A stretch of DNA of 48,431 nucleotides, taken from a phage. The notes under the pieces are model-generated. The model did no database searches. It saw only the letters and a list, made by a program, of their open reading frames with translations, and was not told the origin of the DNA. Positions 4,177-42,978 of the stretch are shown here, one piece after another; position 1 is the stretch's first letter; each line of letters begins with the position of its first letter. The DNA is taken from assembly GCA_012646845.1 (NCBI GenBank), contig GCA_012646845.1_4707.1, one strand, 5' to 3'. A program made the position numbers and the translations under genes.

Positions 4177-4201
4177 AAAAAAGGGTGGGGCGAACCCCAC
4201 C
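4177..4201 (-). terminator. intrinsic terminator-like hairpin GGTGGGG-CGAA-CCCCACC followed by U-run on minus strand
   Basis: perfect 7-bp stem, tetraloop, A-run 4177-4182 on plus strand. Confidence 0.6.
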
Positions 4202-4649: not shown

Positions 4650-4795
4650 CTTGACATCCTCTTATATTGGATTGATTACAGTTATCTTAAATAGGCGATA
4701 AGATATCTTGCTCTTATCACCTAGGTTGCGTTTTGTTAATAACAAAACGCATCGCCTTAGTGACCTATGTCACTAAGGTAATATAGCCGTGAAAT
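4650..4795 (-). promoter_or_regulatory. conserved promoter/leader element copy A: CTATATTAC motif, two inserted hairpins, conserved 28-nt RBS leader
   Basis: 4650-4677 and 4777-4794 are identical to 32967-32994 and 33039-33056; copy A carries an extra ~51 nt (4726-4776) forming two perfect hairpins. Confidence 0.45.
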
Positions 4796-5491: not shown

Positions 5492-6130
5492 TTATGCGAA
5501 GCGACGCATGTAACCTGCCAGATAGTTACGTGTATCGAAGTAAGCAATTTCAGGAATTGCGATATTAAGGTCGATAGCACGGATTTCAACTTGGCGACGG
5601 CTTTCATCATAGATCGCATCCATCAGACGCAGTACTGTCAGGAAAGCCATGCGGGTATGGTAGTCCAGCGGCATGTTGTCGATACCGCGATACAGATAAC
5701 GGTTTGCGTTAAATGCCCCTTCGCGGTTATCTTTCCAGATCTTCAGAATATCAGCAAAGGCGGTGCGGAAAACCTCAGGATTATCCACATCCAGTAACGC
5801 ACGGAAAGCAGACATTAAAGACCGCTGATGACGGATCAACGACTGCGGCGTTTGCGGCATGGTCGGACCCATTTCTTCAGCATATTTTTGGAACGGGGCA
5901 ACCAGGGTTGCGGCACGAGAAGCAACGATAGAAATAGCAGAGGATTCATTCACCGCTGGTTTCGCAGGCTTTTCTTCAACGGCGGTTTCCTTCTTCTCGA
6001 CAGCGACCGTTTCCGGTTGTGCTACAACGTTGCTGGTCGAAGCAGCAGCCACACCATTTTCCACGGTGGTCTCTACTGCTGTAATCTTTTCTTCCACTTG
6101 TGCGGAACGTTGGTCTTTATTCTTGCTCAT
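5492..6130 (-). CDS. hypothetical protein (acidic, low-complexity N-terminus)
   Basis: ORF track; AAAGGAAA SD. Confidence 0.6.
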   Translation of the reverse strand: MSKNKDQRSAQVEEKITAVETTVENGVAAASTSNVVAQPETVAVEKKETAVEEKPAKPAVNESSAISIVASRAATLVAPFQKYAEEMGPTMPQTPQSLIRHQRSLMSAFRALLDVDNPEVFRTAFADILKIWKDNREGAFNANRYLYRGIDNMPLDYHTRMAFLTVLRLMDAIYDESRRQVEIRAIDLNIAIPEIAYFDTRNYLAGYMRRFA

Positions 6131-6155
6131 GTCTATTTCCTTTCATTTAACAAGG

Positions 6156-7457
6156 TTAACTAATATAAAGTTCAGGATCGTAAGGCGCTAACGATACACT
6201 GGCGTTATGCATTGCTTTCATCATAGTGTTCATGAAAACGTTGTTTACACCGGTGATCTCTGCCCCGATCGCGTCTGGGGTTGGAGCCATCGCGTTACCG
6301 CAACAGGTAGCACAGTATTCCAACGGACCCGCTTTACAGCGCTGAGGATCACGTAACTTGATGGTTTGTCCTTCCAAGGAAGCGAATAATTCAGCATCAA
6401 TAAGTTTAAGCGCTGCGCCATCGATCATGTAACGGCCGACGAGCAGTTTATCTTTGATGTGGTCGCGGTTTACCGTGAACAGAATATGTTCTTGGGTACC
6501 GCAGTCGTCCATCGTGATCTTAAGGTTCTGTGTTGCACGTTGCGATTCTTTAGCCGTTTGTCCAGCTAAAGCGGTCAACGCACCACGCGAGAACGAACCA
6601 GCACGTGCACTGTTGTTGTACTCCGCCCAATGGTCGACGCGCATCCCTTCGGCCAGGCTGTGCGTGATAACGTTACGTTTACCAGGGTCAACGAAGTCGG
6701 CTTCAACCCCCATCATGATGTGTGTTTTCTTTCGAGTATTACCGAAACTCTTACCGGGGTTAATATAGAACCCTTCCGATTCATCGCCCTTAAAGGATTC
6801 CTTATCCATTTTGGTTAGCGTGGCTTCGAGTTTGATCAGTTCTTCAGGCGTAAACTTACCTTCCTCTTGCAAGCGCGCTAACTCTTTATCACGATAGGCA
6901 ATAATATCATCATCGACCGTTAACGCTTTATCGCTCATTGAAGGCACAATTAAGCGGTTAATGGCGGTTAATGCGCTGATATTGTTGGTGAATTTCTTCA
7001 CCTCGCTTGCGTACAGTGGACCAATCGGACGTTCGTTAGGATCGGGTATTCCCTCTTCGGGATCATCTGCTACGCGCGGTGCAATCAGTGATTCTAGTGT
7101 ACCGCTGGTTAACCGTCCTGCCTGATATTCAATCTGAATACCGAAAGCGTCATAAAGGACGTACATATTGAACAACGCTTCACCGAAGGTTGTGGTGGTT
7201 GTGTTCTTAACCGACGGTAGATCGCCAGGCGCAAGCTCCAACGGATCCCAGAAATTCAACAAGGGTTTTGTTGGTTCTGTTTCCCATTGGTGTTCTTCAC
7301 CGTCGATGGTAACCGTAACGATGTTACCTTGACGACGTAATTTAGGCTGATACTTCTCAGCGCCGCCTTCCGTAAAAGCAAATGCGTCGTTAATCCACTC
7401 AAGATAACGGTAGTGCCCTTCACGCAACGCGTAAAGGAAATAATCACGAGGTGTCAT
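6156..7457 (-). CDS. multisubunit RNA polymerase beta-prime-like subunit, C-terminal fragment
   Basis: ITMDDCGTQEHI matches bacterial beta-prime VTEDDCGTHEGI; downstream C-x2-C-x-G (CATCCGN) and AIGAE segments at the spacing seen in RpoC; AAGGAG SD. Confidence 0.6.
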   Translation of the reverse strand: MTPRDYFLYALREGHYRYLEWINDAFAFTEGGAEKYQPKLRRQGNIVTVTIDGEEHQWETEPTKPLLNFWDPLELAPGDLPSVKNTTTTTFGEALFNMYVLYDAFGIQIEYQAGRLTSGTLESLIAPRVADDPEEGIPDPNERPIGPLYASEVKKFTNNISALTAINRLIVPSMSDKALTVDDDIIAYRDKELARLQEEGKFTPEELIKLEATLTKMDKESFKGDESEGFYINPGKSFGNTRKKTHIMMGVEADFVDPGKRNVITHSLAEGMRVDHWAEYNNSARAGSFSRGALTALAGQTAKESQRATQNLKITMDDCGTQEHILFTVNRDHIKDKLLVGRYMIDGAALKLIDAELFASLEGQTIKLRDPQRCKAGPLEYCATCCGNAMAPTPDAIGAEITGVNNVFMNTMMKAMHNASVSLAPYDPELYIS

Positions 7458-8913: not shown

Positions 8914-10568
8914 GCGAACAAGAAAAAGAAGTCGTGACGAATCAGGAAGCCACCGAACGTTCAGAGTCGTCCGTTGAAACTACGATTCCGGCAAGTGAGG
9001 GTAAAGACGAAGCTGTCACTACCGAAGGAGATGTAGCGGCTCCAGAAGCAACCCGTGAAGAAGAACCCTCACATCCACCGCTGGTTGATTTCTCGAAGGC
9101 GACGATACGTTTCCAATGCGAAGACATTCGTCCTAAGAGCCCAAAGAAAACAAAACGTCAGCCATTGGTGTTACCGCTGTATTCTCCGCGTGTACAGACA
9201 GCGTATTACAAGGAATACATCAACGAAGCAATGGATACCGTACAAGCCATTGTCGCTCAACGCGGTAAACCTTCGGACGAGCAATTTGATAAATTCAGTA
9301 AAGCGGTAGTGCAATCGGTTGCTGATGGGCAATACCAACCGCGTGGGCCAGCTCATGATCGTGCGTTGGAACGTAAGGGCAGTCAGTGGACTAACGTACC
9401 CGTAGACTCATCGGGTGTTGGTCGTGTTATTCCTGGCATCCCGCAACCGAACCATATTCCTGATGATGTCGAAGCGCCGTTGACAGGAACCGATGCAATC
9501 TATTTTGCTATCCGTAATACGAAATCAGGTGCGCCTGCTGTAATGCCGTTATGGCATAGCGGTATTAAGCTGCAGTTCAATCCACCGTCAAATGAACGTG
9601 TCGCAATTATGCATGAACGTATTGCACGCGATAAAATCCTGGGTGGACGTGATAGTACCGGTTTCCTGTTTTCGGCAACCTCGATTATCACCATGAAACA
9701 TGCTATCGAATTAGCGTTAGAATGCTGTTACATGGCCAACGTACCGAACCTGGATATCCAGCGTTTGAAAGACATTATTCCGGTTACCGATGTTCCAGCA
9801 CTGTTGTTGAACGTGCTGGTAACCATGTACCCGTACGGGTATCCTTACGTGCAGACCTGCTATCAGAATCCAGAAACCTGCGACTATCGTGTTGAAGATA
9901 CCGTAAGCTTTGCGAAGCTCTATCAAGTTGACAACAGTGCGATTACCAAACGTATGCGACAGATCATGACCGAAGGTCCGGTCATGACCGATGAACTTTT
10001 GCGTGAGTATGCAAACGAACTGGGTGAAACAAACTCCCGTACGCTGGATCTGTCTGACAACGGTTCGGTTATCATTGAGCTTGAAGTACCGAAGATCTCA
10101 CGTCAGATTGCCATGGGCGAACGCTGGTTAAGCGATACGCTGGAAGATCTGCGTGATATTCTATCGCGTCCGTCAATGACTGAAGAAGAGCGTGATCGTG
10201 TTATTCGTGAACGTCAGTTCTATAGCTGGATGCGTCAGTATGATGCATGGATCAAATCGATGCATGTGTCGGTAAACGGTACCATGCGTCGTGTGAGCGA
10301 TGCGGATACGGCAACGGTATTAGCACAGCTGTCTCGTGACAGCGACCTTCGTGAACGCTATATCGATGGGTTGATGCAATTCATCGGCGATTCGACGATT
10401 GCGCTCGCGGCAATGCCTGCCTGGAAATGTCCGAAATGTAATACCGATATTGCTGACAATCTGCGTGACCAGAAATACTACGATCTGATTGCTTTGGATG
10501 TACCCCAGCTTTTTTTTACCCTAAACTCCGTCCAATCTCTTCAGGAGGGGATGGACGCGGTATTCTAA
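8910..10568 (+). CDS. hypothetical protein, 552 aa, acidic low-complexity N-terminus
   Basis: ORF track; AAGGAG SD; no motif recognised with confidence. Confidence 0.65.
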   Translation: MSEQEKEVVTNQEATERSESSVETTIPASEGKDEAVTTEGDVAAPEATREEEPSHPPLVDFSKATIRFQCEDIRPKSPKKTKRQPLVLPLYSPRVQTAYYKEYINEAMDTVQAIVAQRGKPSDEQFDKFSKAVVQSVADGQYQPRGPAHDRALERKGSQWTNVPVDSSGVGRVIPGIPQPNHIPDDVEAPLTGTDAIYFAIRNTKSGAPAVMPLWHSGIKLQFNPPSNERVAIMHERIARDKILGGRDSTGFLFSATSIITMKHAIELALECCYMANVPNLDIQRLKDIIPVTDVPALLLNVLVTMYPYGYPYVQTCYQNPETCDYRVEDTVSFAKLYQVDNSAITKRMRQIMTEGPVMTDELLREYANELGETNSRTLDLSDNGSVIIELEVPKISRQIAMGERWLSDTLEDLRDILSRPSMTEEERDRVIRERQFYSWMRQYDAWIKSMHVSVNGTMRRVSDADTATVLAQLSRDSDLRERYIDGLMQFIGDSTIALAAMPAWKCPKCNTDIADNLRDQKYYDLIALDVPQLFFTLNSVQSLQEGMDAVF

Positions 10569-23652: not shown

Positions 23653-23669
23653 TGGGGCGGTAACCGCCC
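23653..23669 (-). other. short perfect hairpin GGGGCGG-TAA-CCGCCCC between large structural gene and downstream fibre gene
   Basis: read directly; lies just upstream of the start region of gene 21881..23635. Confidence 0.4.
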
Positions 23670-23675
23670 CGTTGG

Positions 23676-28175: not shown

Positions 28176-28230
28176 AAAAAAAAAAACAAAAATAGGAAAA
28201 CGGTGCTCATCCTTTTAGGGATGAGCACCG
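28176..28230 (-). terminator. canonical intrinsic terminator: 12-bp perfect stem followed by long U-tract on minus strand
   Basis: CGGTGCTCATCC-TTTTAG-GGATGAGCACCG with A-run 28176-28200 on plus strand. Confidence 0.75.
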
Positions 28231-30591: not shown

Positions 30592-30845
30592 CTTAATTAA
30601 CCTCACGATAAGGTGCTGTCCACTGGCGTCTTGATAACGCAACCCGTCTATCGGGTTGTTCTATTCAGCGGGCAGCAGGTTAGCGTCAGATGTTTGCCCG
30701 ACATCCACGACAGAAATAAACGGTACTGAAAATACGGTCTCCTCTGGTTTGGCAATAAACATAACGTTGGATAACAGAACCCATTTCCCGCATCCAACGC
30801 GGTAAAGGCGTACATCGTTTGAATTCATATAGTTTCTCAAAGATG

Positions 30846-35544: not shown

Positions 35545-36231
35545 TTAAGACGTCGCCATCTTATCTTCCAGAGACTTCTTCGGTAAACCATGGATAACTC
35601 CTTCCGGGGTTAAGAACACACAGTCTGGATTCTGCGTTCGTGAGCGGTCGTCTGGACTATTCAATGAAAACAGCAACGCAGAAATACCTTTCGTCCGATT
35701 TAATGCCGCTACGATCACATCAAGCTGTCGCAGCGCATCCGACACCGTTCGATGAGGAACAATACGTGACTGTTTGAAGCTGGCTAACCGCCAAGTCTCG
35801 AACAAACAACGTAGTTTAAACACGTCGGACGGAATAGCGGTAGATCCCTGTTCGATAACCTCAACACGATCAGCTTCAGGATAACCTACAGCAACCGCAC
35901 TAAAGTGTCTTACCCCATTATGAAAATCGTCGATAGATGCTTCGGCGTATTTACATACCGTGCCAGAAACGACCATCACTTTTGCTAAACCGCGATAATT
36001 GATCGTCAACGGAATACGAAATACACGTAAAGCATGTTCCGGATTTAATGAGACGTCGTTAACCTTCGTTGCGGTCAGCTTACCACGCTCGTAACGTGCG
36101 GTGAACGGTAGCCCGTCATAAACGGGATTGATTACAACGCCCCCTGGGGAGGCGTTAGCGTTAAGATGGACATTAAGCCAATCGGATACTTCCTGTCTAC
36201 TAGTTACGATTAACATAAAACGGTCCTCCAT
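35545..36231 (-). CDS. hypothetical protein
   Basis: ORF track; start set to ATG 36231 with AAAGGAAAAG SD. Confidence 0.55.
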   Translation of the reverse strand: MEDRFMLIVTSRQEVSDWLNVHLNANASPGGVVINPVYDGLPFTARYERGKLTATKVNDVSLNPEHALRVFRIPLTINYRGLAKVMVVSGTVCKYAEASIDDFHNGVRHFSAVAVGYPEADRVEVIEQGSTAIPSDVFKLRCLFETWRLASFKQSRIVPHRTVSDALRQLDVIVAALNRTKGISALLFSLNSPDDRSRTQNPDCVFLTPEGVIHGLPKKSLEDKMATS

Positions 36232-36241
36232 TTCTTTTCCT

Positions 36242-36892
36242 TTATTCATGACGCATATCTTCCAAATCATCCCTTTGTTTTGTAAATTCTGATTGCTTGC
36301 GATAAACCGTCCACGAATCGTATATGCCGTGAAAGTTCAAATGACGTGCATTTAAGTTAACGGTGAATTCTTCCACAGAGGAGAAATCCGAACGAAGCAT
36401 CGAATGGAAGGCGTCATCTCCGGTGCAGCCCCCGTATCCCTCACCCTGATAGATCAAAAGCTGATGTGGTTGAATACGCGCGGCAACCAACGCAGCTTGT
36501 GGTTTGTCGTAAGGTGGCCACGACAGTAAAATAACATCGTACTGTGAAAGATCGATGTTCGTATAGTCGACCTGTTGAATGTCCTCGATAAACGGGTGGG
36601 GATGTAATTCCATATCGTAAGCGGTAATGTCCTCAACACCGAGTTTACGCAGGACGTAAGTCAGGTAACCTGTCCCACAACCCAAGTCAGCGACGCGTCG
36701 CCCGTAACAGATGTTCGCTAACTGGAGCGCGGTATCCATGGTTAACAACGACCAACCAATGTGTTGTGTATATTCTTCACGCACACTCCATTGTTGATGG
36801 TACGTCATGGGTTCTATGATACTAGCAAGCTGCTGGTACGGCAGCGGCATTTTGGTTTCGCCTTGCGTGAGTAAAGCAATAACATCGTTCAT
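36242..36892 (-). CDS. class I SAM-dependent amino-methyltransferase (motif I DLGCGTG, motif IV SWPPY); possible DNA N6-A/N4-C methyltransferase
   Basis: VADLGCGTGYLT and ILLSWPPYD; AAGGAAACAAA SD before ATG 36892. Confidence 0.65.
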   Translation of the reverse strand: MNDVIALLTQGETKMPLPYQQLASIIEPMTYHQQWSVREEYTQHIGWSLLTMDTALQLANICYGRRVADLGCGTGYLTYVLRKLGVEDITAYDMELHPHPFIEDIQQVDYTNIDLSQYDVILLSWPPYDKPQAALVAARIQPHQLLIYQGEGYGGCTGDDAFHSMLRSDFSSVEEFTVNLNARHLNFHGIYDSWTVYRKQSEFTKQRDDLEDMRHE

Positions 36893-36916
36893 TTTGTTTC
36901 CTTTTATCGGCATAAG

Positions 36917-36935
36917 CCCTCCCATGTTGGGAGGG
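36917..36935 (-). terminator. hairpin CCCTCCC-ATGTT-GGGAGGG
   Basis: perfect 7-bp inverted repeat just downstream of 36941..37366 and upstream of methyltransferase RBS. Confidence 0.4.
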
Positions 36936-36940
36936 TACGA

Positions 36941-37366
36941 TTATTCATTTTCAATAACTTTAAGATTCGGTGTACCGAGCGTTTTCTTCACCAACGCCTC
37001 AGCAACGCGTTTCTCGATGAAATCGGTCGCATTGCTTCCGTCTATCGTACGCATATCACCACGGAAATTGTTGAAGACCATAAACAGGTCACAACCGTCG
37101 ATAGGTATCGCAAGATCATAACTGACTTGTGATGCCGTGAAATGGACACCGACGATAACGGCTGGGACGAAGATAGCTGTTGCATTGTTTCCTTCTCCGG
37201 TTCCAAATGGAAGTTCAACACGATCACCGATAGAGAATTGAGTGACATCATTAATCGCGTGAGTTAGTGCGATTCGTTGCATGTCGGCGATCTTTTCCTT
37301 ATTCGCGTCGCAAGGTAGGTCCAAGACTTCTTCCAACGTGAAGAATTTACGATCGAACCAGCTCAT
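36941..37366 (-). CDS. hypothetical protein
   Basis: ORF track; AAGGAG SD. Confidence 0.55.
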   Translation of the reverse strand: MSWFDRKFFTLEEVLDLPCDANKEKIADMQRIALTHAINDVTQFSIGDRVELPFGTGEGNNATAIFVPAVIVGVHFTASQVSYDLAIPIDGCDLFMVFNNFRGDMRTIDGSNATDFIEKRVAEALVKKTLGTPNLKVIENE

Positions 37367-37367
37367 G

Positions 37368-37901
37368 TTAAGCTCCTTCGTGTTTTACGGATGATGTTAA
37401 CCAAGATGATCTTACCGTGAAACCCTCAGACTCGTAGAACGCCTGGGCTTCATCATTGTCGGCACGAACATCCAGACCGATAGAATGACCACCACACTGG
37501 TAAGCGATGTTGCGCGCTTCATTCATCAGGGCATGGCCGATACCGCGTCCGCGATATTCGGGTTTTACAATAATCGATGTAACGTCATGAATACCCATAT
37601 GGCTCTCGGTGCTCACTTCCAAGAGGCCTACCGGCGTCGAAACGATAGCGTCGATCATAACGACCAGCATCGCGGCGTCCGGTAAACGCTGTTCTAATTC
37701 TAAGGAATCATATTCACGTTTTAAATCGGGAATATTCCCAAACATAAACGTGGTGCCCCACGCCTCCGATTCCGCATCATCGAGAATACGGTACAGTTCA
37801 CGAATCTGCTGTTTGTGTGGGTAAAGATGTGGATCAGCGACCGTCGAGGTGCTAACGCAAAAGAACGGTCGTTCGTTAATAACCAGTGTTTTGATGCTCA
37901 T
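37368..37901 (-). CDS. GNAT-family N-acetyltransferase
   Basis: motif A IVKPEYRGRGIGHALM and C-terminal EAQAFYESEGF; start overlaps stop of upstream HTH gene (ATGA). Confidence 0.8.
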   Translation of the reverse strand: MSIKTLVINERPFFCVSTSTVADPHLYPHKQQIRELYRILDDAESEAWGTTFMFGNIPDLKREYDSLELEQRLPDAAMLVVMIDAIVSTPVGLLEVSTESHMGIHDVTSIIVKPEYRGRGIGHALMNEARNIAYQCGGHSIGLDVRADNDEAQAFYESEGFTVRSSWLTSSVKHEGA

Positions 37902-38404
37902 GCTAAAATTCCTTCATTACCTAACAGTCGATTACGATGACGTCGGTACATTTGACAAAGTGTTGTGATTTGATAAAGTTTGTTGTAACGTACCTCGATA
38001 CGTTTTTGCACCTCTTTCCACGGAAGTTTATCGTATTGCCGATAACGATGGATTTCATTCAACATCCGAAGACGTGTAGGATCGGTATTCTTTATTGTTA
38101 CGAGCTTCACGCGCTGGTATCCGCGCTGCAACCCCGATTCCGAATACGTAATGCCGAACTCATCCTGAATGATAGTAATGATCTCCCGCCATCGGCGCTT
38201 CTCGCCGTCACGTAAATGGACAACCCGCGATAAGATATCGTTCCGATTACGATGACTCAGTTTAATGTTAAGCATTGAAGCAATCGCGCTAATTGCTCTC
38301 TGACTCCGCCCTAACGCCTCACCGATCTCTTTCGATGTCATGACGCCAGCGTTTCGACGTATGAATGCGATTTCGGTTGTTGTGTATTCTTTACCTGCCG
38401 CCAT
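37898..38404 (-). CDS. HTH-domain paralogue F (tandem array of six)
   Basis: TTEIAFIRRNAGVMTSKEIGEALGRSQRAISAI and repeated W...FGIT...LYQ motifs; translationally coupled to GNAT. Confidence 0.65.
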   Translation of the reverse strand: MAAGKEYTTTEIAFIRRNAGVMTSKEIGEALGRSQRAISAIASMLNIKLSHRNRNDILSRVVHLRDGEKRRWREIITIIQDEFGITYSESGLQRGYQRVKLVTIKNTDPTRLRMLNEIHRYRQYDKLPWKEVQKRIEVRYNKLYQITTLCQMYRRHRNRLLGNEGILA

Positions 38405-38868
38405 TTCTTACCACGCGTGTTATAATAGTAACGTTGACAAAGATGTGTGTGATGGTACTCCCGTTTGAACTCGACATTGATAATGCGAGCAACTTCTCTC
38501 CAGCTAACCCCTTCATGTCGCAGTGACGTGATGCGGTCTGAAATTTTGCACCATTCATCTGGGTCGTATCGTCGTAGCTTATGGCGTCGTATTACGGAGG
38601 CGACACTCGCTCTCGATCGACCAAGATGATTTGACAGTTGTTTAACCGAGTATCTGTGGATATTGTCGCGAATATAGGAAATCTCGTTGTTCGTATATGC
38701 CTCATTGGTTCTTGACGAAGGGAACAGCATATACAACTTATTCTTAATCGCGCTTTCTGTGCGTTGAAATACAGTAGCCAAATCACTAACCGGTGGTCTG
38801 GGTATCTGATCCGCGTAACTCTCGAGGCGTGAGAGTTCCTCATCTGTCCAGCGACGGTATTTGCGCAT
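38338..38868 (-). CDS. HTH-domain paralogue E
   Basis: RRWTDEELSRL..., ...LGRSRASVASVIRR; start set to ATG 38868 with AAAGGAG SD. Confidence 0.65.
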   Translation of the reverse strand: MRKYRRWTDEELSRLESYADQIPRPPVSDLATVFQRTESAIKNKLYMLFPSSRTNEAYTNNEISYIRDNIHRYSVKQLSNHLGRSRASVASVIRRHKLRRYDPDEWCKISDRITSLRHEGVSWREVARIINVEFKREYHHTHLCQRYYYNTRGKKWRQVKNTQQPKSHSYVETLAS

Positions 38869-39343
38869 AGGCAACTCCTTTGTTTTTCGTGTAGTAACAC
38901 CAACGTTGATACAACGCATGTTTATTCGTTGTAATCCCAAATTTAACAACAACGTCGTATGTGATAACATTCCAATTTTGGGTAACGTTAAGTCGTTCCG
39001 CGATAAACGCGATAATTGCTTCCCGTTCTTGCTTTGTTAACGCACGACGAATTCCATTAAGCCGTATAAACTGACGAACCGAGTCATACGAGCGGTTTAA
39101 ATCGTACGCGATCTCACGCAGCGATTTTTGTTTGATTACGGACTTGATGTACGCGCGTTCTTCTTCCGTATAAGGTCGATGCTTTTGGCGTTGACGTATT
39201 CCCAAACGTCCCAGACGCGCGTCGATGCTGGCGCGTGTTCGTCCTGTCCGTTGTGCGATTTCATCAATCGTCATCGATGTGTTTAAGTACAGATGCGTGA
39301 CGTCTTTCAGCTCGTCGTCACGCCACGGTTGAGATCGTCCCAT
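38840..39343 (-). CDS. HTH-domain paralogue D
   Basis: WRDDELKDVTHLY...IDEIAQRTGRTRASIDARL; AGAGGGA SD. Confidence 0.7.
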   Translation of the reverse strand: MGRSQPWRDDELKDVTHLYLNTSMTIDEIAQRTGRTRASIDARLGRLGIRQRQKHRPYTEEERAYIKSVIKQKSLREIAYDLNRSYDSVRQFIRLNGIRRALTKQEREAIIAFIAERLNVTQNWNVITYDVVVKFGITTNKHALYQRWCYYTKNKGVAYAQIPSLDR

Positions 39344-39821
39344 CTTGTATCCCTCTTTTCTTTCTATGATGCCACCAACGCTGATAGACAGCCTGCTTCG
39401 TACGTGTTATACCGAAATGCGCATTAACCCGTTCAGCAATGTGGTGCCAGTCCTGTGTTTCTTCTAACAATGTATCAACGAAGGCTATGAAGATCTTAGT
39501 ATCATCCTCGCTTAACCGCTTGAAACCATGACGGTGTGCTATCGTTCTAATACTGTTTGGATCCCTGTTTAAATCGCGTGCGAGTTGTTTGTAACTTTTG
39601 TGTTTGCAGTGTGCTCTGATATATTCCAACTCATCGACACTGAAACGTTTATGCGGTTTACGACGTTCAACATTTAAGTATATCAACCTCGATTTAATTG
39701 CACCGTACGTTGTTTCCATGATTTCTGCGATTTCACGGATTTTTAATTTCGGGTGACGATAGTACAATTCCAGCAACTGTTCATCATCCTTACGATTCCA
39801 TCGTCGTATTGGAGGTTTCAC
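39318..39821 (-). CDS. HTH-domain paralogue C (GTG start)
   Basis: RRWNRKDDEQLLELY...IREIAEIMETTYGAIKSRL; AGGAGAAA SD before GTG. Confidence 0.65.
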   Translation of the reverse strand: MKPPIRRWNRKDDEQLLELYYRHPKLKIREIAEIMETTYGAIKSRLIYLNVERRKPHKRFSVDELEYIRAHCKHKSYKQLARDLNRDPNSIRTIAHRHGFKRLSEDDTKIFIAFVDTLLEETQDWHHIAERVNAHFGITRTKQAVYQRWWHHRKKRGIQDGTISTVA

Positions 39822-39834
39822 AACGAGATTTCTC

Positions 39835-40302
39835 CTATTCTGCGCGTTTTAATGCTTGAGTGTAGTAGAGGCTATGAACACCGCTTAACGTGTAATGGGT
39901 GTTAAATTCGTTATTGATGATATTCCGTATTCTCTCCCAGGTGTTATTCTCTTTTCTAAGGGTGTGTATTCGATAATAAATCATCTCTCGACGTTGCGCT
40001 TTGCATGCAACAATACCATAACGGTAGCAGAGTTTAGCGATTGCATCCACGCTACGATTGAACATCACTGCAGCTTCTTTTACGCTATGTGTCTTGAGAT
40101 AATCGGCTAACATCACGCGTTCTTCGAAGCAACAATAGCGATGACGCGACATGAGTTTCCAGCGCTTGCGATTACGGTTAATTCGACCTTGAACCGAACC
40201 TTCTGTTCGACCAAGCCGTTCCGCAATCTCTTGCATCGGTATACCGTTTCGGTACAGGGTAATCAACATCGCATCTTCTTCGGGTGTCCAGTCCTTGACC
40301 AT
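39835..40302 (-). CDS. HTH-domain paralogue B
   Basis: WTPEEDAMLITLYRNGIPMQEIAERLGRTEGSVQGRINR. Confidence 0.7.
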   Translation of the reverse strand: MVKDWTPEEDAMLITLYRNGIPMQEIAERLGRTEGSVQGRINRNRKRWKLMSRHRYCCFEERVMLADYLKTHSVKEAAVMFNRSVDAIAKLCYRYGIVACKAQRREMIYYRIHTLRKENNTWERIRNIINNEFNTHYTLSGVHSLYYTQALKRAE

Positions 40303-40314
40303 AGTACCACCCCA

Positions 40315-42978
<2,664 letters not shown>

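Follow-up and report, generated by a model that had tools for sequence, protein, structure and literature searches.

Does a small methyltransferase gene carried by a phage serve to protect the phage's own DNA, or does its product act on another acceptor? The question is raised by an open reading frame (ORF) at positions 36242–36892, minus strand, of a 48,431-nucleotide stretch of phage DNA (GenBank assembly GCA_012646845.1, contig GCA_012646845.1_4707.1), which at its full length is referred to here as the window. A first-pass annotation, made from the letters alone, had described the product as a compact class I amino-methyltransferase with a motif I (DLGCGTG), an SPPY motif IV and little room for a target-recognition domain, and had suggested either a minimal DNA N6-adenine or N4-cytosine methyltransferase or an enzyme akin to RsmD or HemK. 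The results of our analysis indicate that the gene encodes a virus-restricted and as yet uncharacterised form of the class I methyltransferase fold, the acceptor of which is most likely not DNA. For the window itself the outcome is mostly corrective, in that the product should not be taken for a methylase that protects DNA and contains no "SPPY".

The interval first given for the ORF was exact and, with the strand now assigned as minus, the coding sequence read from the ATG at 36892 specifies 216 residues. This form of the gene (36242..36892) is supported by the ORF and its translation, by identity with a known phage protein, by the ratio of nonsynonymous to synonymous substitution (dN/dS) and by an AlphaFold model. 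The region shares 91% nucleotide identity with Escherichia phage vB_EcoM_Goslar, a 237-kb jumbo phage, in which the orthologue is gp111 (YP_009820796; 91% identity), labelled "hypothetical" in GenBank and "class I SAM-dependent methyltransferase" in RefSeq. A protein nearer than that of Goslar, with 97% identity, is encoded by a 237.5-kb IMG/VR contig. Comparison of three Goslar-like genomes gave a dN/dS of 0.11–0.15, which by this sequence measure indicates purifying selection; this value, a mean predicted local distance difference test (pLDDT) of 91 for the model and thousands of homologues clearly set the gene apart from an ORF arising by chance. No paralogue was detected within the window. 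Database names of the homologues are generic, no paper mentioning gp111 was found, and the reviews and genome papers contained nothing specific to it.

The AlphaFold2 model, built from an input alignment of 16 sequences, has a predicted template-modelling score of 0.88 in addition to the pLDDT given above. It consists of N-terminal helices (residues 3–62) followed by a class I methyltransferase core, with strands β1 (67–70), β2 (89–93), β4 (120–124), β5 (145–150), β6 (170–172) and β7 (193–199). Helices and catalytic core together fill the 216 residues, as the remark on the limited room for a target-recognition domain had anticipated. The features that typify the class I superfamily dependent on S-adenosylmethionine (SAM) are all present, i.e., a seven-stranded α/β fold with an antiparallel β7, structural neighbours that are methyltransferases, a motif I of the form [DE]-x-G-x-G-x-G and an acidic residue at the end of β2. 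The model thus supports a compact SAM-dependent class I methyltransferase fold without a target-recognition domain, and the class assigned at first pass agrees with it. The protein is acidic, with an isoelectric point (pI) of 4.84 and a net charge of −15.

Beyond the superfamily, similarity to known enzymes is generic. Foldseek searches of the PDB returned weak matches only (E value about 3e-6, TM-score below 0.5), mostly to small-molecule N- and O-methyltransferases, and all Pfam and NCBIfam matches were below threshold and restricted to the region from motif I to β4. The sole specific match was to PHROG 19090, a family of unknown function (E value 1.9e-18), in which residues 35–198 align significantly with positions 32–190 of the 191-position profile, i.e., over essentially its full length. 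Alignment of the family profile with reference enzymes of E. coli K-12 using hhalign gave the highest probabilities for UbiG (95%), PrmA (92%), TehB (91%) and PrmC (89%), the last spanning residues 63–130 only; KsgA reached 1%. Taken with halide methyltransferase, MmcR, CcbJ, ToxA, CypM and COMT, the structural and profile neighbours lean toward small-molecule and protein methyltransferases.

Conservation was measured on 151 representatives, one per cluster at 50% identity, and is also visible in an alignment of 105 sequences. On the SAM side the residues are those expected. Motif I, D69-L-G-C-G-T-G75 (36668..36688, minus strand), is present as the first-pass annotation had reported and corresponds to the SAM-binding glycine loop after β1; the acidic residue at position 69 is conserved in 100% of the representatives, G73 in 98% and G75 in 97%. 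D93 (36614..36616, minus strand), conserved in 96%, ends β2; in class I methyltransferases the ribose hydroxyls of SAM are canonically bound by an acidic residue at this place. Position 109, after β3, is Asp or Asn in 77%. As the residues on this side are canonical, binding of SAM by the protein is very likely, judging from what is known of the fold; the cofactor would be held by the G-x-G-x-G loop (residues 71–75), D93 and D109.

The position of motif IV, which directly follows β4, is where the first reading failed. A Pro-Pro-Tyr does lie 55 residues past motif I, and hhalign places it exactly over S-N-P-P-Y of E. coli PrmC and D-P-P-F of RsmD, so the position was correctly recognised. The sequence, however, is S124-W125-P126-P127-Y128 (36509..36523, minus strand; read from the translation, the family alignment and hhalign), within the peptide I-L-L-S-W-P-P-Y (residues 121–128), and the pattern [DNS]PP[YFW] of amino-methyltransferases matches nowhere in the protein. 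Among the representatives W125 is conserved in 100%, P126 in 97% and Y128 in 82%, and position 127, the second Pro, is variable (Asp 34%, Pro 21%, Cys 15%, Asn 13%). The family motif is therefore [STC]-W-P-x-Y rather than (D/N/S)PPY, and "SPPY" was a misreading. In amino-methyltransferases the Asp, Asn or Ser of this motif hydrogen-bonds the target amino group; in the present family it is this defining residue that is exchanged for an invariant Trp.

This substitution bears directly on the proposal that the gene encodes a minimal DNA N6-adenine or N4-cytosine methyltransferase protecting the phage from restriction. The proposal can draw on the class I fold with its motif I, on the Pro-x-Tyr element at the motif IV position, on weak PADLOC matches to a type II methylase model and to mad2 (E value about 1e-5, confined to the region from motif I to motif IV), and on the location of the homologue of the haloarchaeal viruses phiH and PhiCh1 within a cluster of DNA methylase genes. 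Against this, besides the Trp and the unconserved second Pro, there is no target-recognition domain, all 216 residues being used and the net charge being −15. None of the 105 members matched N6_N4_Mtase, N6_Mtase, MethyltransfD12, Dam, MT-A70, Eco57I or RsmD/Cons_hypoth95 at an E value of 0.01 or below, and the query itself had no match to the DNA amino-methylase Pfam families even at E ≤ 1; the families that the members did match are all generic (Methyltransf_23, 71 members; Methyltransf_25, 43; MTS, 37; TehB, 18). The hhalign probabilities were 0.4% for YhdJ, 0.3% for Dam and 0.2% for Dcm. The family is thus excluded from the DNA-methylase families. DNA-methylase genes stand near a family member in only 5 of 97 loci, and the linkage suggested by phiH and PhiCh1 was rejected on this count. 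Moreover, no modified bases were detectable by high-performance liquid chromatography in the DNA of phiH, which carries a homologue (PMC6210493), and in Goslar-type phages the DNA is housed within a protein nucleus, DNA-modification systems being reported as less common in the Chimalliviridae (PMC13282480). We consider a DNA-protecting function very improbable.

The alternative of an RsmD- or HemK-like enzyme fared somewhat differently. The likeness in fold and in the position of motif IV is real, but membership of these families is not borne out, since the MTS profile scored 19.8 bits against a cutoff of 23 and covered residues 63–95 only, Cons_hypoth95 matched 0 of 105 members, and the hhalign probability for RsmD was 7%.

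The strongest family-specific block was missed in the first-pass annotation. It lies at the end of β5 and in the loop that follows, Y148-Q-G150-E151-G-Y-G-G155-C156-T157-G-D-D160 (36413..36451, minus strand; from the family alignment), and takes the general form Y-x-G-E-x3-G-G-C-T-G-[DN]-D-x-F, with conservation of 88% for Y148, 100% for G150, 98% for E151, 99% for G155, 98% for C156, 85% for T157 and 91% for F162. The block is retained in the halovirus, giant-virus-bin and prophage copies. Just ahead of β7 is D192-x-W194 (36311..36319, minus strand), part of a family motif G-I-H-D-x-W in which D192, likewise overlooked at first, is conserved in 99% and W194 in 88%, with His at position 191 in 75%. 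R38 (36779..36781, minus strand), which belongs to the N-terminal helical region and lies within helix 31–44 of the model, is conserved in 95% and is embedded in the motif R-E-x-Y-I-x3-G-F-x-I-L-T-x-E. By sequence comparison, the residues on the acceptor side resemble those of no curated family.

How widely is this arrangement distributed? A profile search of 1.84 billion representative proteins yielded 7355 relatives at E < 1e-3, 727 of them at E < 1e-30, which are nearly all stand-alone proteins of 180–250 residues. The acidity of the protein is shared by the family, whose median pI is 5.25, with 70% of members below pI 6. Using tblastn the family was found in 32 phage records, among them jumbo phages of Aeromonas, Klebsiella, Salmonella, Xanthomonas, Pseudomonas and Stenotrophomonas and the haloarchaeal viruses PhiCh1, phiH and HGTV-1. 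It is also present in at least 80 IMG/VR contigs, many of 250–500 kb, and in two giant-virus bins, whose copies keep the G-E ... G-G-C-T-A block and have lost W-P. Searches of BFVD gave TM-scores of 0.75–0.81 for family members and revealed more distant look-alikes in Klosneuvirinae. Cellular copies are rare (18 in 185,579 species genomes), and the three that were sampled (L008, L012 and L013) sit amid genes of phage families (e.g., terminase, Dda-like helicase, and RNA and DNA ligases). The family is almost entirely viral. One of the three, on a 258-kb scaffold assigned to an uncultured Lachnospiraceae bacterium (L012), is flanked by genes encoding a terminase-like protein, a Dda-like helicase and an NAD-dependent DNA ligase; because of these phage-type genes, the scaffold may be a mis-binned jumbo phage genome. 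Departures from the stand-alone form are few. An 872-residue ORF from a metagenome-assembled genome of Candidatus Obscuribacterales (L007, 3967–6585) carries a TPR_12 domain (E value 9e-19) N-terminal to the methyltransferase domain, and a 610-residue protein (P0086) is a tandem duplication of the methyltransferase domain. The extra regions of four further members (P0061, P0101, P0127 and P0156) had no Pfam match.

Taking these features together, we propose, with about an even chance of being right, that the protein is an active SAM-dependent methyltransferase which uses a pocket of W125-P126-x-Y128, E151, C156, D192 and W194, capped by the helices around R38, to modify a non-DNA acceptor common to bacterial, archaeal and possibly eukaryotic hosts. 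Judged from the topology of the fold, the pocket would be built from the loops after β4 (W125-P126-x-Y128) and β5 (G150-E151 ... G155-C156-T157) and from the segment before β7 (D192 and W194), with the N-terminal helical region closing it, and the methylation would serve host take-over or counter-defence. That the acceptor is most likely not DNA follows from the Trp in place of Asp, Asn or Ser, from the lack of a DNA- or RNA-recognition domain and from the high acidity, as well as from conservation of the catalytic loop across bacterial and archaeal viruses and the giant-virus bins. A universal target that is a non-polymer or a protein, e.g., a cationic amine, a nucleobase-containing metabolite or a basic protein, is more likely because the conserved residues are aromatic and acidic, the protein is itself acidic and has no nucleic-acid-binding module, the best neighbours are small-molecule and protein methyltransferases, and one relative is fused to TPR repeats.

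Several observations weigh against this proposal. The best PDB sequence match of the deep profile is an archaeal ribosomal RNA (rRNA) methyltransferase forming 5-methyluridine (m5U) (PDB: 8z62; E value 9.4e-6), and the near-invariant Cys after β5 recalls the RNA methyltransferases that form m5U or 5-methylcytidine (m5C). Enzymes that act on polymers, methylating their nucleobases or amides, typically have a conserved Pro in motif IV (DPPY, DAPC, DPPR), and an acidic pI may be compatible with nucleic-acid substrates. Some family members lie beside or within arrays of transfer RNA (tRNA) genes. In addition, the homologue of phiH1 and PhiCh1 overlaps a gene for a YhdJ-type DNA methylase by 4 nt.

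One alternative is an RNA methyltransferase acting on tRNA or rRNA. In one version its target would be C5 of a pyrimidine, C156 serving as nucleophile and either E151 or D192 as acid/base, as in TrmA and RlmD (m5U) or RsmB (m5C). Enzymes forming m5U and m5C carry their catalytic Cys nucleophile in the loop after β5, which is where the near-invariant Cys of the family sits. Sub-threshold Pfam matches include FtsJ and RrnaAD, and one phage record found by tblastn calls its homologue a "tRNA methyltransferase". However, the Cys of the family is located 8 residues past the β5 Tyr in a G-G-C-T context, compared with 3 residues in Y-V-S-C-N-P, and neither S-C-N-P nor T-C-S is found at C156. The hhalign probabilities were low (RlmD 14%, RsmB 4%, RlmC 4% and TrmA 4%), and the alignments with these enzymes end at motif IV, leaving no profile similarity in the C-terminal half; on these grounds the lead offered by the Cys and 8z62 was rejected. 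Neither TRAM nor PUA nor any other RNA-binding domain is present, and the protein is strongly acidic. As for gene context, tRNA genes lie within ±6 kb of the family gene at 11 of 60 loci; the gene of Halogranum tailed virus 1 (HGTV-1; locus L081, 633–9064) at 5845–6489 is inside a 30-tRNA array, a tRNA-Arg gene lies 3 nt past the family gene at another locus (L048), and a 12-tRNA array is just upstream at a third (L071). This proximity is not significant (Kolmogorov–Smirnov test, p = 0.07) and the window has no tRNA gene, so that tRNA linkage was rejected. An RNA substrate is regarded as unlikely. A further lead, toward protein arginine methyltransferases, was also rejected. It arose from a match to PRMT3 (E value 2e-5) in which SEWMGY aligned with SWPdY, and it became weaker with a deeper profile (E value 1.8e-4); neither the double-E loop nor the β-barrel of that family is present.

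Another alternative is a protein that binds or consumes SAM on a methyltransferase scaffold, i.e., a SAM sink, a SAM-cleaving enzyme, an aminocarboxypropyl transferase or a Cys-dependent enzyme, with the role of lowering host SAM or processing a SAM-derived signal. In its favour, a conserved SAM side is combined with an acceptor side whose Trp, Glu, Cys and Asp match no known methyltransferase active site. A precedent exists among phages in the SAM lyase of T3, which reportedly attacks SAM pools. To our knowledge, however, the phage SAM lyases have a different fold, all close structural neighbours of the present protein are methyltransferases, an acceptor pocket so strictly conserved would be needless in a simple sink, and no positive evidence for SAM consumption was obtained. 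We consider such an activity improbable. A bolder reading, which we rate as rather doubtful, is that the family is a distinct virus-specific class of SAM enzyme in which a catalytic Cys/Glu pair modifies a universal small molecule, or in which a conserved host protein is modified. Small-molecule candidates would include a nucleotide, an immune signalling nucleotide, a polyamine or another metabolite. If this were true, the family would represent a widespread, undescribed take-over or counter-defence activity in jumbo phages, haloarchaeal viruses and, apparently, the giant-virus bins.

Gene context gives little further guidance to the methyltransferase proposed here. Among 98 loci, in which ORFs were clustered by BLAST and the neighbours from the window were compared using phmmer, no gene partner recurred outside Goslar-like phages, and an apparent second cluster of neighbours proved to consist of antisense ORFs over the methyltransferase gene in high-GC genomes. 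When 20 flanking proteins were compared with the PHROGs, 16 had no match, one matched a family of unknown function, two were homing endonucleases and one was a sigma factor.

For the start of the coding sequence, in addition to the ATG at 36892, in-frame alternatives at 36913 and 36925 would give proteins of 223 and 227 residues, respectively, and the RefSeq start of the Goslar orthologue is the equivalent of ATG 36913 (223 residues). Either 36892 or 36913 is a candidate. An AAGGA ribosome-binding site, read from the sequence, is located at 36899..36903 (minus strand), 6 nt before ATG 36892. The hairpin that had been reported immediately before this site is real. It is an intergenic stem-loop at 36917..36935 (minus strand; RNA CCCUCCCA-ACA-UGGGAGGG, plus-strand letters CCCTCCCATGTTGGGAGGG) with an 8-bp stem and a 3-nt loop, 13 nt upstream of AAGGA and beginning 5 nt past the stop codon of the upstream gene (36941–37366); its folding z-score against shuffled sequences is −2.6. 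Its stem is unchanged in two Goslar-like relatives, and differences are confined to the loop (AACAT, GGCAT, GACAT). The 3' arm, GGGAGGG, would also serve ATG 36913 as a strong Shine-Dalgarno sequence, and formation of the stem may mask this stronger upstream site. The hairpin is most likely a separate piece of intergenic punctuation that serves the upstream gene as a terminator, 3'-end or stability element, in a phage using its own RNA polymerases. For an intrinsic terminator it lacks the U-tract, the sequence that follows being CUUAUGCCGAUAAAAGG, and it was not called by the terminator scan; Rfam had no match in the window.

Similar structures recur elsewhere in the window. Perfect GC-rich hairpins of at least 7 bp number seven in the 48 kb, and six of the seven fall within the scarce intergenic gaps. 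These intergenic stem-loops of 7–12 bp are at 4184–4201, 4755–4778, 23654–23670, 28201–28230 and 30640–30658 in addition to 36917–36935, often a few nt past a stop codon and without U-tracts, and the sole comparable hairpin inside a coding region is at 9964–9987. They are probably 3'-end or processing signals of phage transcripts.

Some neighbouring genes deserve mention in their own right. Downstream, the ORF at 35545–36270 (minus strand), when read from its first ATG, overlaps the stop codon of the methyltransferase gene by 29 nt; because the corresponding Goslar gene, gp110, is annotated to start 26 nt past the methyltransferase stop, the true start probably lies further in, at an ATG near 36216. 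The gene at 37368–37901 (minus strand), two genes upstream of the methyltransferase, encodes an acetyltransferase of the GNAT family (Acetyltransf_1, E value 2.4e-15), a pairing seen in Goslar-like phages only. At 37898–40662 (minus strand) about six small paralogous genes, of about 115–210 residues, stand in tandem, and their products match one another in phmmer at E values of 1e-5 to 1e-26. They correspond to Goslar gp114–gp119, one of which is annotated with a SANT/Myb domain, and the array has the look of a family of putative DNA-binding proteins that was amplified locally.

The interest of the methyltransferase gene lies beyond this one phage. Thousands of viral genomes carry this conserved small SAM enzyme, the active-site residues of which match no characterised methyltransferase, and the carriers include nucleus-forming jumbo phages that are considered for therapy. 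Should the acceptor be a host metabolite, a signalling nucleotide or a component of translation, a new viral activity of host manipulation would be at hand; if it is an ordinary RNA or protein methylase, the gain is a routine improvement of annotation.

Compared with known systems, the closest kin are the other members of PHROG 19090. Goslar gp111, PhiCh1p84, gene 67 of HGTV-1 and the methyltransferase of Klebsiella phage Miami are true members of the family, and since all of them are uncharacterised, membership gives no function. With the DNA N6-adenine and N4-cytosine methylases (Dam/MethyltransfD12 and YhdJ/N6_N4_Mtase) the family shares the SAM-dependent class I fold and the glycine loop of motif I, but it is acidic and has neither a DPPY/SPPY motif nor a target-recognition domain. 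PrmC/HemK-Mtq2, RsmD/RsmC and METTL5 differ from it at the Asp, Asn or Ser of motif IV, where the family has Trp with a variable second Pro, and it has additional invariants in G-E ... G-G-C-T after β5 and in D192. Like RlmD, RlmC, TrmA and RsmB it has a conserved Cys after β5 and a conserved Pro in motif IV; unlike them, it is devoid of RNA-binding domains, and the spacing and context of the Cys are different. The best scores from Pfam, hhalign, Foldseek and PDB sequence searches belong to Methyltransf_23/25/11, UbiG, TehB, PrmA, CcbJ, ToxA, CypM and PRMT. Although the signature of W-P-x-Y, G-E ... G-G-C-T and D-x-W occurs in none of the generic methyltransferase families compared, and the likeness is limited to the region from motif I to β4 with scores mostly below curated thresholds, these small-molecule and protein methyltransferases are of similar size and, as in the viral family, have N-terminal helices ahead of β1.

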